The notes: generated from the letters alone by a model not told the origin. DNA of 64,000 nucleotides from Muribaculaceae bacterium (GCA_029051525.1 JAIDKG010000136.1:3569-67568); one strand, 5' to 3'; counted from the first letter of the stretch, positions 50,906-56,745 are shown. Made by a program: numbers and translations.

Positions 50906-51460
50906 ATGGAAAAATCTGATATCAGAAGAAAAATCAACTCCATGCGCCGCATGCTCTCCGAGGAGGAGAAGGCCTTGGCGGCCGAAGACGTGTTCAGCCG
51001 ACTTGAACAGACAGCTGCCTTCCTTATGGCCGACAAAATACTCATGTATCACTCACTCCCCGATGAACTCTCCACCCATGCCTTCCTGCGCAAATGGGGT
51101 GGCCGCAAACACTTCTTCCTGCCGAGAGTCAACGGTGTGAATCTCGAACTGCTCCCTTACGACGAGTCGCGCCTCGAACTCGGTTCCTTCCATATAGAGG
51201 AACCCATAGGCAACGATCTCATCGACCCCGAAGAGATAGAGCTGATGATAATCCCCGCCGTGGCCTACGACCGATGCGGTAATCGTCTCGGCCGTGGCAA
51301 GGGATTCTACGACCGTATGCTCGGTTCGGCCCGCGCCACCAAAATAGGTGTAGGCTATGAATTCCAGCTTATCGACGACATCCCCGTCGAACCCCACGAC
51401 ATCCCCGTCGACATGGTAATCACGCAGCACACCACCATCACCGTAAAGCACACCCTCTGA
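50906..51460 (+). CDS. 5-formyltetrahydrofolate cyclo-ligase
   Basis: IPAVAYD...GNRLGRGKGFYDR, EPHD. Confidence 0.94.
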   Translation: MEKSDIRRKINSMRRMLSEEEKALAAEDVFSRLEQTAAFLMADKILMYHSLPDELSTHAFLRKWGGRKHFFLPRVNGVNLELLPYDESRLELGSFHIEEPIGNDLIDPEEIELMIIPAVAYDRCGNRLGRGKGFYDRMLGSARATKIGVGYEFQLIDDIPVEPHDIPVDMVITQHTTITVKHTL

Positions 51461-51567
51461 ATCATATTTATTCAATGTCTGATATAAGTATAGAATGAAC
51501 TAAAATGAACCGGGGATAAATTAACATTAATTAACATTTGAATTTTGCGAGTATGAGGATCTATGCT

Positions 51568-51575
51568 TACTTTTG
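51568..51575 (+). promoter_or_regulatory. Promoter -7 element for the RiPP precursor
   Basis: TACTTTTG with upstream TTTG elements in an AT-rich region. Confidence 0.7.
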
Positions 51576-51638
51576 CAATTGATAGTTAATTATAGTGTTA
51601 ATTAACATACTAAGTCACTTACTTAAAATCAACTCACC

Positions 51639-51893
51639 ATGACAAATGAGTTTAAAAGCATGATCGAGAGGATGGAAGGAGATATGCTCGCTTCCACTTC
51701 AAGATTATTCCTCTGTGGAGGAGCTGGTGATGAAGGAGCAGATCCATTATTTTTGGATATCTGTTCTAACGCTGGCATATGTCCCAATCAGGTATGTTTA
51801 CCTGATCCAGACTTTTTCAAATGTCTGAGTAATTTGGATGCATGTGGTCCAGTGAACAATCCGAAGTTGCAACTCACATGCAAGCGCGAATAG
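51639..51893 (+). CDS. Putative RiPP precursor peptide (double-glycine leader, six-Cys core)
   Basis: 84 aa; LCGG at aa 25-28; core Cys42, 48, 53, 62, 69, 81 with Asn 3-4 residues before several Cys; directly upstream of the rSAM/SPASM gene. Confidence 0.8.
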   Translation: MTNEFKSMIERMEGDMLASTSRLFLCGGAGDEGADPLFLDICSNAGICPNQVCLPDPDFFKCLSNLDACGPVNNPKLQLTCKRE

Positions 51894-51944
51894 TCGATAC
51901 ACGCCCTCCACACACATTACTTATATTCAAAGAGTATAAGTAAG

Positions 51945-51986
51945 AACCAAATTTAGAGTCTATTATAATAGACTCTAAATTTGGTT
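51945..51986. repeat. Perfect 42-bp palindrome between precursor and maturase, preceded by a second hairpin at 51917-51943
   Basis: AACCAAATTTAGAGTCTATTA|TAATAGACTCTAAATTTGGTT. Confidence 0.92.
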
Positions 51987-52012
51987 GATTTGATATATTT
52001 GTTTAAAATATT

Positions 52013-53290
52013 ATGATGAGATTTAAATATAGTATTTTTAATAATCGTCTACGAGCTACGGATAAAAGTGATATATTGTATAACTCTTTTACTCATAAGT
52101 CAATACTCGTTCCTAGAGATGTGGAATTGATACATCCCGATCAAATGGCTCCCCAATCCTTAGAGGCCATGAAATCATGGGGGTTTATAGTTGAAGATGA
52201 TATAAATGAATCGAAGCGCGTACAGGATATACTACTAGATACAATGTCTACGGGATCGATATTTAATCTCATCATCAATCCCACATTAGAATGTAATTGT
52301 CGTTGTTGGTACTGCTATGAAACTCATCATAAAGAGATGGTAATGTCAGAAGTGACATTAATTCATTTAAAGGAGTTCATAACAGACATTCTTTCTAATT
52401 ACGATGAACTTATAGTTTCCTTTTTTGGAGGGGAGCCGTTTATGGAATTTGATAGAATTGTGAGGCCTATCATGGAATGGACTCGTAATGAATGTAAAGC
52501 TCGCGGTAAGCGTATCAGATATGGGTTTACTACTAATGCGCTCTTGATAACTCAAGAGATGATTGAGTTTCTTGCGTGTTTCCAAAATCAAAAATTTCAA
52601 ATTACATTAGATGGAGGAAGAGCATTTCATAACTCTACGCGAGTTAGTAGGTCATGTGATTCTTATGCAAAGGTTGTTGCCATTGTAAAAAAATTGGCAT
52701 CTATAGGTTGTGATGTCTTGCTTCGTCTCAATTTAACGCATGAAAATCTTTCGTCTGCTTTTGAAATCCCATTAGATTTTGAAGAGTGTGAGGATGAAGT
52801 GAAGAATCATATTGAAGTTGGATGTCAGCAAGTTTGGCAGGATATTCAAAATGGAGATTTAGATAAAGACTTTTTTAATTTGAGGAAGGCCTTTAAAGCA
52901 ATTGGAATCTCATCTGCTGATAAGGATCCTGATAGCATCCGAAGTACATGCTATGGGGATAAAAGGGATTCTATAGTAGTCAATTATGATGGAGGTTTAT
53001 ATAAATGTACTGCTGTTGACTTTTCTAAAACAAAGAGTATCGGGAATATTTTACACGGAAATCCTCTTAAGGCTATAGAGGAGGATTTTAAACATTACTC
53101 CAACCGTAAACTGTATAAAGCACCTTGTCAACATTGTAGAATTTGGCCGATTTGTGCTGGTGGCTGTTACAGAAAGCTATCATCGAATGCAGATCATCAC
53201 TGTCTTTTCCCATCAGATGAGATGAAAGACGAGGTGGCAATGAACAATCTTGAAGAATTTGTGTTCATAAATATGAATAAGAACTCTTAA
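52013..53290 (+). CDS. Radical SAM/SPASM peptide maturase
   Basis: CNCRCWYC (CX3CX2C), FFGGEP, TTNA, QITLDG; SPASM CYGD...YKC...CQHC..WPICAGGC...C; about 80-aa N-terminal extension that is RRE-like in position. Confidence 0.93.
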   Translation: MMRFKYSIFNNRLRATDKSDILYNSFTHKSILVPRDVELIHPDQMAPQSLEAMKSWGFIVEDDINESKRVQDILLDTMSTGSIFNLIINPTLECNCRCWYCYETHHKEMVMSEVTLIHLKEFITDILSNYDELIVSFFGGEPFMEFDRIVRPIMEWTRNECKARGKRIRYGFTTNALLITQEMIEFLACFQNQKFQITLDGGRAFHNSTRVSRSCDSYAKVVAIVKKLASIGCDVLLRLNLTHENLSSAFEIPLDFEECEDEVKNHIEVGCQQVWQDIQNGDLDKDFFNLRKAFKAIGISSADKDPDSIRSTCYGDKRDSIVVNYDGGLYKCTAVDFSKTKSIGNILHGNPLKAIEEDFKHYSNRKLYKAPCQHCRIWPICAGGCYRKLSSNADHHCLFPSDEMKDEVAMNNLEEFVFINMNKNS

Positions 53291-53344
53291 AAAGTTCTTA
53301 TTCTACATTGAATTCAGTTATTCACGCTCTTAATCTTTACGGTT

Positions 53345-53974
53345 ATGAAGAAATTGTCAATATTGATTGCGCTGCTTCTTAGTGTGAGTGCAGCGGCATT
53401 TGCCGGTAATCTGAAACAGGCTTATGAGGAGATGCAAGGTGTGGTGAAGATGCAGGATGTGTCGCAGGCTGAGACCGACACGCTGCTTTACAAGTTGCAC
53501 TCCACACTTCCTGTCACGAATCGCCGGGCGATGATATCGAGTTTTGAAGTTGGTAGTACCGGAGTCTCAGCGGCATGGAACGGCACACAGCAGCTTATCG
53601 GCAACTTAAAGGATGTCAAAACAATATGCAAGGTAATGACCGACTGTAACTCGTTGGAGATTCTTGCCGAGCCGGCGGGTGATTCAGTAGATATTTTAGC
53701 CATATGGCAACTTAACTATTTTGGCCGCACGTTGGTGATATATGGCACGACCACACCCGAAAATGCTAATCTGATGCGGATGGGTTCGGCCACAGTAGAT
53801 TACTTCAGAGTCTCTTTTAAGCCGATGCCTGAGCAAGTCTTTAATCAGTTGCAGCAGCTCGCCGAGTTGCAGACCCGCATAGAAAAAGATAACACCTCAC
53901 TGACCCGCGAAGAGCAGCAACAACTGCTCGACCAATGCCGAGAGACACTCAGCCGTACTTCTGCCGCTGAATAG
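53345..53974 (+). CDS. Secreted hypothetical protein
   Basis: 209 aa, SPI signal peptide (…AAAFA); no recognised family. Confidence 0.75.
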   Translation: MKKLSILIALLLSVSAAAFAGNLKQAYEEMQGVVKMQDVSQAETDTLLYKLHSTLPVTNRRAMISSFEVGSTGVSAAWNGTQQLIGNLKDVKTICKVMTDCNSLEILAEPAGDSVDILAIWQLNYFGRTLVIYGTTTPENANLMRMGSATVDYFRVSFKPMPEQVFNQLQQLAELQTRIEKDNTSLTREEQQQLLDQCRETLSRTSAAE

Positions 53975-54119
53975 CTCCAATTACTCTCGCCCCCTTTGAT
54001 TCTCTTGGCCACCAGATTAATCTTATTCTTGGTGATTTTGAATTTTCAAGATTACCAAGATTGATGATATTAATCGAGATGGTGTTGATTCTCCCGAACT
54101 AACTCTAACCCGACTGAAT

Positions 54120-56417
54120 ATGAGACGATTCCTAACTCTATTTCTTCTAATTTCTGCGATTTCAATATGCGCCTCGGCGCGTAGGATTGGCGGCGTGGTG
54201 CTCTCGGAAGTTGACTCCGTGCCGGTGGCAGAGGCTCGTTGTGTGGTGACTGTAGATGGCAATGAAGTGGCAACTACTGTAACCAATCCTCGTGGTCAGT
54301 TTGTAATACAGACACCGGATGCCGCCTCAATGGCATTGACTGTAGATAAAGAGGGTTTTACTCCCTCTGATGTGATAATTGAATCCGGAGCAGAGGAGCT
54401 GAATATAGGTGTGATATGGCTCTCATCCGGACGGATGCTTGAGGAGCTTACCGTAGAGGGGCGAGTGGATACCGATGCGCGAGGACGCACGATTATTTAT
54501 CCCGGTCAGGCTGACGTAAAAGCCTCTCCTACAGCGGTCAGTCTCTTTCAGAAGCTGCCGTTAAGCGGGCTGACAGCCGACCCGATAAACAGGTCAATCA
54601 GTGTGCAGGGTCATACTCCCGTAATTCTGATTGACGGTGTCCCCTCATCGCTCACCGAACTTCTTGCTATCTCCCCGAAGAATATAGAGAAAATTGAATA
54701 CTCCATACTTCCACCGGCCCGTTATGCCTCGAAATCCGAGATGGGTTATCTGAGCGTCACGCTTAAGGCCCGTACTGATGGCGGTCAGGTAGACCTTTGG
54801 GCACGCTCCGCTCTGACCACATGTTTTTTTGACGCCAGTCTGATGGGGTCGTATCATAACGGTCACTCGAAATTTCAGGTCAACTTCACCCCCTCATGGC
54901 GCAATTATCAGAATGTCAATGACCATGTAGAGGAGTCATATATCGGTACCGACGGGTTCCGCCTCGACCTTGAATCGCAGGGCATAAGTCCTTTCAATTA
55001 TTTTTCAGCTCCCGTGCAGTTGAAATACACGTTCGCTCCCAATCAGGGCACCGTGTTTTCGGCGGCGCTCAATCTGAGACCATATTCCGACCACCAACGT
55101 TCCGATGGATATACCCTCGATTTTCTTCACAACGACTATAATTTTGACAACGAAAACCGGTCGAAAGATTTTGCCACTTCGCTCGATCTCTATTTCCGTC
55201 GTGACTTCAATTCGTCAAATAGTCTTGAAGCCGAGGTGGTAGGCACACTGTCCAACAGCGACTATGACCGCGAGAATATCTACAATTATATCAGTGGAGT
55301 CACCGAAACATATCCCATCGACATTCATAGCAACAGGCGCTCGCTTATCACCGAGCTGAGTTATATACACAGCTTCTCGCAGCAGTCAGAACTTACAGCG
55401 GGATACTCCAACACCCTCTCCAGAAGTGAGAATACCTACCGCACCACCGACTATCAGCCGGAACTGACAGAGAACAACAACTATCTCTACGTGGCTTACG
55501 GGTATCTGTTGAATCGTGTTTACCTTCAGGCCCGCACCGGTGCCAAACTCTATTGGATGCGCAACGATGATTCCCGGCATCATTATTTCCGCAATATCTC
55601 GGCTCTTGAGATGCAATGGGTTCCGGTGCAGGCATTCTCGCTGACAGCCTCCGCTAATTACTCCTCCGGCATCCCGGGTCTCACCTCGCTGACCGACTAT
55701 GCCCAGCAGGTGACACCATATCTCATCTCTAACGGAAATCCCAATCTAAAGACACAGCATTACATAAATGTGGCTGCGCGCCCCACATGGCGTTATAAAA
55801 AGCTTGCCATGATGGGTGGAGTATTCTATTCCAAGACCATCAACGGAGTCTTTACAGATGTCAGCTATCTCGGCAACGGCATGTTCCTTTCACAGTCGAT
55901 CAATGCCCGCCGAAGCGATACTTGGACCGGTATGCTGCAACTTCAGATGAGTGATCTCCACGGTTTCGGCTTTAACGTGAGAGGGGTCTATTCCCACTAC
56001 ACCTCCGAGGGAGCTGACTGGAAAGAGGCGCTGGCATCGTGGAGCGGGTTGATCAACGTGTGGTATAACCTGCGTAAGTTCACATTCAGCTACTATTATG
56101 TGCTTCCCGGCAAGAGCCTTTACGGGCAGAAGGTATCGAAAGGGGAGAACTCCAATGCCCTTCAGGTATCGTATGCTCCCGACAAGCATTGGAATATCCA
56201 GGCATCATGGATGTATATGTTTGACGGTCACGGCACCAAATATCCCTCATGGAATTACTCTGCAGTGAATCCCTCCTACGTAGACCGCAACATCCGTGAT
56301 AACGGCAATATGGTCTGCATTAGCGTGAACTACACGGCCGACTTCGGCTCGATTTTCCGCACCAAACGCCGCACCCTCAACAACTCCGACGGCGGCTCGG
56401 CTATCCTCAAACTCTGA
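54120..56417 (+). CDS. TonB-dependent-like outer membrane beta-barrel protein with carboxypeptidase-regulatory-like N-domain
   Basis: Signal peptide; TNPRGQF; LEELTVEG; plug motifs ILIDG and IEKIEY..PPARY; GNPNLK; alternating beta strands. Confidence 0.85.
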   Translation: MRRFLTLFLLISAISICASARRIGGVVLSEVDSVPVAEARCVVTVDGNEVATTVTNPRGQFVIQTPDAASMALTVDKEGFTPSDVIIESGAEELNIGVIWLSSGRMLEELTVEGRVDTDARGRTIIYPGQADVKASPTAVSLFQKLPLSGLTADPINRSISVQGHTPVILIDGVPSSLTELLAISPKNIEKIEYSILPPARYASKSEMGYLSVTLKARTDGGQVDLWARSALTTCFFDASLMGSYHNGHSKFQVNFTPSWRNYQNVNDHVEESYIGTDGFRLDLESQGISPFNYFSAPVQLKYTFAPNQGTVFSAALNLRPYSDHQRSDGYTLDFLHNDYNFDNENRSKDFATSLDLYFRRDFNSSNSLEAEVVGTLSNSDYDRENIYNYISGVTETYPIDIHSNRRSLITELSYIHSFSQQSELTAGYSNTLSRSENTYRTTDYQPELTENNNYLYVAYGYLLNRVYLQARTGAKLYWMRNDDSRHHYFRNISALEMQWVPVQAFSLTASANYSSGIPGLTSLTDYAQQVTPYLISNGNPNLKTQHYINVAARPTWRYKKLAMMGGVFYSKTINGVFTDVSYLGNGMFLSQSINARRSDTWTGMLQLQMSDLHGFGFNVRGVYSHYTSEGADWKEALASWSGLINVWYNLRKFTFSYYYVLPGKSLYGQKVSKGENSNALQVSYAPDKHWNIQASWMYMFDGHGTKYPSWNYSAVNPSYVDRNIRDNGNMVCISVNYTADFGSIFRTKRRTLNNSDGGSAILKL

Positions 56418-56551
56418 TTTGATGCTGTGTGCGTAGGCCTGTGATACCGCTCTAAACTGAATATAGATGATTCATCCCGTGATAGTGCAAAAAATTAGGG
56501 ATGAATCATCTTTTTTCCGTTATCTGTATTTGGATAATGATAAAAAATTCT

Positions 56552-56559
56552 TAACTTTG
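56552..56559 (+). promoter_or_regulatory. Promoter -7 element for the M16 peptidase
   Basis: TAACTTTG with TTTG at about -33. Confidence 0.7.
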
Positions 56560-56745
56560 AAACATCAAGAGCGCGTTCCTTAAAATTACGGGGCCGTAGA
56601 GGTGGCGATTTTGAGGGAATTTTGCGAGTCGAAGAAGTCTCGATGAGGGCATCGTGACTGATGAGAGTTCGCAAGATTGTGTGTGACGATTCTACCAACC
56701 GACTATCCGATAGAGTACAAATTATATAACTATATCCGACACATT

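Follow-up and report, generated by a model that had tools for sequence, protein, structure and literature searches.

A rare variant of a widespread Bacteroidota radical-SAM/SPASM peptide cassette in a Muribaculaceae genome

Gut Bacteroidales are dominant symbionts, and we know of no peptide of the type considered here, modified by a radical S-adenosylmethionine (rSAM) enzyme, with a known structure or function from these bacteria. In streptococci, NxxcB forms a beta-thioether that joins Cys to Asn at NxxC motifs. NxxcB is named among the known rSAM families (PMC11851443). Bacteroidales clusters, including rSAM-only clusters, have been noted by bioinformatics to encode an ATP-binding cassette (ABC) transporter with a C39 peptidase domain (PCAT) and an outer-membrane protein without a fusion protein (Fernandez-Cantos et al., PMC10352776), and the itf cluster of Bacteroides is summarized in the same source as containing the precursor ItfA, the YcaO protein ItfB and the rSAM enzyme ItfD (Clark and Seyedsayamdost 2022, via PMC10352776). 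We analyzed a 64,000-nucleotide stretch of DNA from Muribaculaceae bacterium (GCA_029051525.1 JAIDKG010000136.1:3569-67568; hereafter the window), for which an earlier reading of the sequence alone, the original prediction, had proposed a biosynthetic system for a peptide synthesized ribosomally and modified after translation (RiPP). Positions 51461..56676 (no strand assigned), lying between the genes for 5-formyltetrahydrofolate (5-FTHF) cyclo-ligase and an M16 peptidase, were found to be an inserted block of four co-oriented, intact genes, which encode a precursor peptide, an rSAM/SPASM enzyme, a 209-aa protein and an outer-membrane barrel. The predicted gene set, namely a precursor with a Gly-Gly (GG) leader, an rSAM/SPASM enzyme, an exported protein and a barrel, is thus complete.

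The window holds a rare form of an uncharacterized kit that is widespread in Bacteroidota, and not a new class. About 995 relatives of the enzyme were present in a large protein collection, the nearest 51% identical and most 33-44% identical, and 557 genome loci of the enzyme family were confirmed by tblastn with one genome per species; their hosts were Bacteroidales, Flavobacteriales, Chitinophagales, Sphingobacteriales and Cytophagales, and Paraprevotella xylaniphila, Chryseobacterium and Flavobacterium are examples of cultivable hosts. In 56 of 69 family loci, an automatic filter detected, beside the enzyme, one to four small genes that each encode a Cys-rich core behind a Gly-Gly-type leader, so that homologous enzymes without adjacent Cys-rich peptides, which would have spoken against the original prediction, are not the rule. 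The 58 species-level loci included 41 with a co-oriented barrel (detected by profile), 42 with a C39 ABC exporter (PCAT) and 36 with both, and several of the loci without a barrel or PCAT end at contig ends. The normal kit is a barrel, precursors, the enzyme and a PCAT, several family loci carry two to four paralogous precursors, and the precursor cores are highly variable. Homologous precursors, barrels and 209-aa proteins adjoin homologous enzymes on unrelated contigs, and this conserved neighborhood is the strongest argument against a chance grouping of genes. The gene block is confirmed as a real observation, its gene content, motifs, folds, conserved gene neighborhood and insertion borders having been observed directly, and its reading as a RiPP cassette is supported. 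The proposal of an undescribed class stood insofar as no curated family or characterized product was found to cover the system, but it did not stand as a one-off, since the window belongs to a rare sub-clade of the Bacteroidota kit. We found no characterized product of the enzyme family in the literature, with most subscription journals beyond the reach of the search, so an earlier published characterization is possible.

The peptide maturase is a 425-aa protein (52013..53290, + strand) assigned by its Pfam and NCBIfam domains and invariant cluster Cys, and its N-terminal ~85 aa form a region common to peptide-maturase families. The Pfam Radical_SAM model PF04055 matched with 44.4 bits against a cut-off of 29.5; the Pfam SPASM model scored slightly below its cut-off (20.2 against 21.5 bits), and the NCBIfam SPASM domain TIGR04085 passed (46.6 against 27 bits). 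The CxxxCxxC motif (C94/C98/C101) and the seven SPASM Cys (C313, C332, C372, C375, C381, C385 and C397, in the pattern C-x13-G-x4-C ... C-x2-C-x5-C-x3-C ... C) were invariant across 25 relatives; a SPASM domain is expected to have seven or eight Cys, which serve two auxiliary clusters. With its reading frame intact, all cluster Cys present and the domain models matching, the enzyme is complete, as had been predicted.

An NCBIfam scan of the enzyme matched 63 maturase models, none of them an equivalog above its cut-off. The best scores were those of the geopeptide model (122 bits against a cut-off of 400), TIGR04463 (120/525), PapB NF047865 (108/340), CefB (107/600), QhpD TIGR03906 (101/453) and SCIFF TIGR03974 (87/425), and three more distant family members likewise missed the equivalog cut-offs. 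By these scores the enzyme belongs to none of the named families, whereas a pair of enzyme and precursor within an already characterized family would have counted against the original prediction. The sactipeptide maturase model RumMC NF035951 failed (65.7 bits against 720), and the NxxcB model was not among the best 25 of the 63 matches. Membership in the GG-Bacteroidales rSAM system of TIGR04148, of which we take TIGR04149 and TIGR04150 to be the precursor and pseudo-rSAM partner models, was rejected on a score far below the cut-off (52.8 against 300 bits), and no second rSAM-like gene is present in the locus. In a profile search of Protein Data Bank (PDB) sequences, the best match was CteB (5wgg, E 4.6e-28), and SkfB (6efn) reached only E 2.6e-9. 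The best-scoring characterized relatives, PapB, QhpD, the SCIFF maturase and CteB, all form non-alpha thioethers, and thioether cross-linking of the core Cys is therefore the best inference for the chemistry.

The precursor peptide (84 aa; 51639..51893, + strand) has a 28-aa leader that ends in LCGG, and the 56 aa of its core include six Cys and numerous Asn, Asp and Pro residues, which agrees with the 84-aa peptide, LCGG site and six core Cys originally described. Double-glycine leaders were judged by the Gly-Gly site, by a hydrophobic residue at each of positions -4, -7 and -12, and by whether the cluster encodes a C39 ABC exporter; counted from its GG site, the window leader has Leu both at -4 and at -12, but position -7 is Arg and position -3 is Cys. 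The core contains a single NxxC motif (NQVC) and ends in the conserved loop C-x4-N-P-K-x4-C. Homologous precursors lie beside enzyme homologues at loci L014 (45% identity), L020, L104 and L105. When the sub-clade precursors were aligned, Cys was the sole residue conserved in register, usually with the spacing C-x5-6-C; window-type precursors ended in a conserved loop C-x3-4-[HN]-[ND]-P-[KF]-x4-C, and Asn or Asp stood at +3 from Cys in 42% of cases against a background of 18%. Across the family, Asn was the commonest core residue (14.7%). Relative to Cys, it was over-represented at positions -3 (0.31), -1 (0.29) and +2 (0.31), against 0.15. These values exceeded all of the 300 within-core shuffles (maximum 0.21), giving statistical backing to the earlier idea of a Cys/Asn relationship. 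The window precursor alone retrieved only itself in a word-level search of 5.8 billion proteins, a profile of ten precursors retrieved 21 clusters from the same number, the sole name among them being "hypothetical protein [Muribaculaceae bacterium]", and neither Pfam nor NCBIfam had a match for the precursor.

The outer-membrane barrel (765 aa; 54120..56417, + strand) comprises a signal peptide, a CarboxypepD_reg N-terminal domain, the TonB-box-like sequence LEELTVEG, a plug and the barrel proper. Its AlphaFold2 model (predicted local distance difference test, pLDDT, 84) matched PirA, ChuA, PhuR, Cir, ZnuD, PfeA, OprC and BtuB in Foldseek at E of about 1e-18 to 1e-15 over 660-790 aligned columns, a span that covers plug and barrel. 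The original call of a TonB-dependent-like barrel was right about the TonB type but too weak in its "like", as the protein has a full transporter fold with a plug and a TonB-box-like motif. This motif, L-x-E-V-x-V-x-[AG], follows the N-terminal domain and precedes the plug, was kept in 18 of 18 aligned members of the barrel family and, we presume, resembles Bacteroidota TonB boxes; the plug motif I-L-I-[ND]-G was kept in all 18 as well. By sequence models, only PF14905 OMP_b-brl_3 passed (32.1 against 27 bits), CarboxypepD_reg scored 29.1 against 32.3, and Pfam Plug and TonB_dep_Rec gave no match; phmmer of the barrel against PDB sequences also found none, so that fold comparison alone succeeded. 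The barrels that adjoin close homologues of the enzyme share 44-47% identity with the window barrel. After the last strand, members of the barrel family have a polar/basic tail of ~20 residues (F-G-K ... G-I-L-K; 56350-56417 in the window) that is modeled with low confidence, whereas the last residue of classical TonB-dependent transporters is, to our knowledge, aromatic. For the direction of transport, the import-type architecture speaks for uptake, but we favor export on account of the tight coupling between barrel and PCAT, the lack of an accompanying gene for a fusion protein or TolC-like protein, and the precedent of Oar, a TonB-dependent transporter of Myxococcus xanthus that is required for PopC secretion (PMC6434023).

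The fourth gene encodes the accessory protein (209 aa; 53345..53974, + strand), which has a type-I signal peptide and no lipobox Cys, in line with the exported protein of 209 aa that had been predicted. When 97 family enzymes were placed in a tree, that of the window fell into a clade of six (support 97) that corresponds exactly to the loci with a homologue of the 209-aa protein, and a clade of 11 (support 99) added L014, L018, L107, L002 and L021. The accessory family is small, with only 36 representatives in 1.84 billion proteins, and neither Pfam nor NCBIfam had a match for it. Its AlphaFold2 model (pLDDT 89, predicted TM-score 0.81) is an alpha/beta sandwich with a C-terminal helical hairpin (residues 162-209), and this hairpin is absent in most relatives. 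Weak structural matches to Bacteroidota hypothetical proteins, some of them DUF4252, reached a template modeling (TM) score of 0.5-0.6, and a feature search of the ESM Atlas gave weak leads (score ~0.8) to DUF6108 and DUF4252. A wide VIA-align structure search with the model was swamped by the non-conserved residues 162-209, so nothing was learned on the core. A complex prediction of accessory residues 21-209 with precursor core residues 29-84 scored 0.01, which weighs neither way.

The same enzyme tree bears on several family loci that occur in bins labeled Akkermansia, Flexilinea, Methanobrevibacter, Oribacterium and Eubacteriales (L078, L032, L083, L084 and L082). L025, from a bin of unknown taxon, is the neighbor of L078 and L032, whose branches are very short; L084 is next to a row from Prevotella, and L083 and L082 cluster with one from Tannerella. 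Mis-binned contigs are the likeliest explanation for these loci, rather than transfer across phyla.

A near relative of the window provided information on the role of the accessory protein. In locus L136 (Logan SRR30592955), the flanks are 96% identical to those of the window, and the accessory gene is present alone (L136:2814-3449). This copy has 85% amino acid identity to that of the window, with a ratio of nonsynonymous to synonymous substitution rates (dN/dS) of 0.26 and a dS of 0.31, compared with a dS of 0.10-0.12 in the flanks. Enzyme and precursor are absent, and a remnant of the barrel gene's final codons, together with the spacer that follows them, lies next to the accessory gene on its downstream side, indicating that the barrel was deleted there. 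Judged from these substitution rates, the accessory gene of L136 is still under purifying selection after the loss of the producer genes, and a gene kept alone under such selection is what an orphan immunity gene would look like. The accessory protein is thus most likely of an immunity type that confers self-protection, with a chaperone role also possible.

We compared the insertion site with the corresponding site in the same genus. In 10 of the 19 same-genus loci examined, the genes for the S41 peptidase, the 5-FTHF cyclo-ligase and the M16 peptidase were directly adjacent, and in six further loci the M16 peptidase gene lay ~1.4-1.7 kb downstream of the cyclo-ligase gene. With the exception of L136, none of these 19 loci had the enzyme, barrel or accessory gene between the cyclo-ligase and M16 genes. 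The M16 peptidase itself was rejected as a member of the cluster, because it stays beside or near the cyclo-ligase in same-genus genomes without the cassette. In the four of these six loci that were inspected (L128, L131, L133 and L134), the gap held two unrelated reading frames (~230-247 aa and 170-206 aa), so the site is variable in the genus.

Base composition changed within the block. The GC content fell from ~0.55 to 0.33-0.37 across 51400-53300 and returned to 0.46-0.52 over the accessory and barrel genes, so that the abruptly AT-rich segment of the original prediction was found for the precursor and enzyme genes but not for the accessory and barrel genes. In every cassette checked (the window, L014, L016, L018, L020, L101 and L106), the rSAM gene had the lowest GC and the lowest GC at third codon positions (GC3, ~0.30-0.45), which makes the AT-rich step of the window a family trait, and the PCAT and barrel genes of these cassettes were closer to host values. 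This pattern suggests that the precursor-enzyme module is exchanged more often than the transport genes.

No PCAT was found in the window locus by gene calls and Pfam. The genome assembly (2.49 Mb, 140 contigs, 87% complete) contained a single C39 domain, on contig C30, where a second, complete cluster (L101:417-9862) encodes a barrel of 799 aa, a precursor of 82 aa with a Gly-Gly leader and a Cys-rich sequence, an rSAM/SPASM enzyme of 484 aa, a barrel of 805 aa and a PCAT of 730 aa. It is plausible that the window peptide is processed in trans by this PCAT. On C30, a 96-aa reading frame directly follows the PCAT gene, and the nearest models of the C30 rSAM enzyme are ScmE and the mycofactocin type. 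Two more rSAM/SPASM homologues, 26-30% identical to that of the window, were found on contigs C89 and C118 (L102:6882-8177, minus strand, and L103:2915-4225). Together with the enzymes of the window and C30, these bring the genome to at least four rSAM/SPASM loci.

Several non-coding features surround the precursor gene. The site TACTTTTG (51568..51575, + strand), 64 nucleotides before the precursor ATG, is a consensus match to the Bacteroidota -7 promoter element TAnnTTTG, and the promoter-like site noted originally is thereby located; the whole window contains 35 such matches against 17 expected. Three exact copies of AATTAACAT on the + strand flank TACTTTTG, two in tandem upstream (51519-51527 and 51529-51537) and one downstream (51600-51608), and these candidate operators are a possible binding site for a regulator. 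At some related loci (L016 and L105), a gene of the GerE/LuxR type lies immediately upstream of that for the enzyme, and the window has none. Two hairpins lie between the precursor and enzyme genes (51917..51986, + strand), the second of which (51945-51986) has a perfect 19-21-bp stem and a T-rich tail and is unusually stable (z = -8.4, with 0 of 200 shuffles equally stable). By these features, it is probably a partial terminator that fixes the precursor:enzyme ratio with precursor transcripts in excess. A further 13-bp palindromic hairpin (53275..53303, no strand assigned) overlaps the enzyme stop codon just before the accessory gene.

Taken as a whole, these data make it fairly probable, in our judgment, that the cassette makes a ribosomal, cross-linked peptide by the following route. 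The promoter at ~51568 would drive the precursor gene, and the strong hairpin would pass only part of the transcripts into the enzyme gene. The N-terminal region of the enzyme would bind the leader, and the enzyme, with SAM and three Fe-S clusters, would link the sulfur of core Cys to side-chain carbons of nearby residues, for which Asn and Asp are the best acceptor candidates, yielding a multi-ring thioether peptide of a ranthipeptide-like kind. Next, the Gly-Gly leader would be cut off, and a C39 ABC exporter, here the genome's sole PCAT on C30, would deliver the peptide into the periplasm. From there the TonB-type barrel may carry the peptide across the outer membrane, with outward transport favored and re-uptake as the alternative, and the 209-aa protein would handle or neutralize the peptide in the periplasm, most likely for self-protection.

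Several observations weigh against this route. The leader is atypical for PCAT substrates, with Arg at -7 and Cys at -3, and the locus has no PCAT. Every equivalog cut-off was missed widely (122 against 400 bits at best), which leaves room for a reaction other than the formation of thioethers, and TonB-dependent transporters normally import, so the barrel type does not decide the direction of transport. The closest structural matches of the accessory protein to named proteins (PsbP, Mog1, DcrB and Eag chaperones) were uninformative, with a Foldseek E of 4e-3 at best and TM scores of 0.23-0.30. Finally, a near relative is without the enzyme, precursor and barrel, and the window copy might be decaying. 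It is rather unlikely, in our estimate, that the cassette is such a remnant, nonfunctional in this strain and due to be lost as in the near relative. The missing PCAT, the unusual leader, the loss of the barrel at the same site in L136, where enzyme and precursor are also absent, and a precursor that matches only itself at the word level would all fit decay, but all four reading frames are intact, every catalytic Cys is kept, neither the promoter-like site nor the attenuator hairpin is disrupted, and a PCAT is present elsewhere in the genome.

The inferred reaction and the direction of transport each face a rival as well. That the top-scoring characterized families are all non-alpha thioether formers, that Cys is the sole residue in register in the sub-clade precursors and that Asn/Asp stand at fixed spacings from Cys all speak against an enzyme that forms alpha-carbon sactionines or carbon-carbon cross-links or that epimerizes residues, with the Cys left to form periplasmic disulfides. 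Such other chemistry has only a modest chance of being correct, although it draws on the equivalog scores far under the cut-offs, on the inclusion of DynA (76 bits), the HxsB family and anSME among SPASM maturases of similar score, on the ability of full-length similarity to mispredict rSAM chemistry (PMC10288494) and on a peptide route through the periplasm, where disulfides can form. The other rival concerns function: the peptide may be a public good or signal that is released and re-imported by the barrel, perhaps loaded with metal, with the accessory protein as its periplasmic receiver. Methanobactin with MbnT and siderophores provide the comparison for such re-uptake of a metal ligand. 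The barrel has a complete import-type architecture with a conserved TonB-box-like motif and a plug, and its best folds are importers of metal, heme and siderophores; Cys, Asn, Gly, Ser and Thr abound in the family cores, and the accessory fold weakly resembles the periplasmic binding modules DcrB and PsbP. Variable cores and two to four paralogous precursors at several loci, however, are of an antagonism or kin-discrimination type and not that of a metal ligand, and little metal binding would be left if the enzyme consumes the thiols. Re-uptake would also leave export across the outer membrane unexplained, there being no fusion protein or TolC-like gene with the PCAT (PMC10352776), and an orphan receiver without a transporter in L136 makes little sense. 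We therefore regard re-uptake as rather improbable and prefer an exported, thioether-linked peptide with a self-protection protein.

The family is large and tied to a TonB-type barrel, and one solved member would assign both chemistry and transport route to hundreds of clusters. The rare sub-clade of the window, with its precursor, enzyme, accessory protein and barrel, provides a compact test case, and the relative L136, with the accessory gene only, is a natural experiment on the immunity role. The most far-reaching outcome, which we hold to be doubtful as a combination, would be a so far undescribed two-step exit of RiPPs in Bacteroidota, from a PCAT to a dedicated, TonB-energized outward barrel without a fusion protein or TolC, together with, in the sub-clade of the window, periplasmic immunity proteins of a new family, retained as orphans once the producer genes are gone, and a new multi-ring thioether scaffold between Cys and Asn/Asp.

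The window was compared with the known systems closest to it. The itf type was rejected, there being no YcaO among the four genes of the block. As far as the itf cluster is summarized in the source cited above, it resembles the window in being a RiPP cluster of Bacteroidales that has a Gly-Gly leader and an rSAM enzyme and differs in that, with no YcaO in the window, a backbone amidine would not be expected, and in that the precursors are unrelated. By description, the likeness to NxxcB lies in the family-wide enrichment of Asn at -3 from Cys (31% against 15%) and in the one NQVC of the window core, whereas the window has only this single NxxC and differs in leader, exporter and gene context. 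Oar, also compared by description, shares a TonB-dependent-transporter fold that possibly acts in export, but its substrate is a protease and not a RiPP. The ranthipeptide/SCIFF systems (CteB-thermocellin and PapB-freyrasin) and QhpD have, like the window, an rSAM domain, a seven-Cys SPASM domain and the shared N-terminal region, although the scores of their models lie far below the cut-offs (108/340, 87/425 and 101/453 bits for PapB, SCIFF and QhpD). Systems of the ranthipeptide/SCIFF type also share with the window a Cys-rich precursor in which acidic or amide residues stand at short, fixed distances from Cys; in the window, however, the candidate acceptor is mostly Asn, in contrast to their Asp, Glu or Thr, and the kit resides in a Gram-negative Bacteroidales host with a TonB-type barrel and, in the sub-clade, a periplasmic accessory protein. 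With the Bacteroidota kit of barrel, precursors, rSAM/SPASM enzyme and PCAT, the window shares the enzyme family (30-44% identity), the barrel family, the leader type and the core composition; its own copy differs in carrying no PCAT, and its sub-clade in adding an accessory protein of 170-220 aa and a distinct precursor family.

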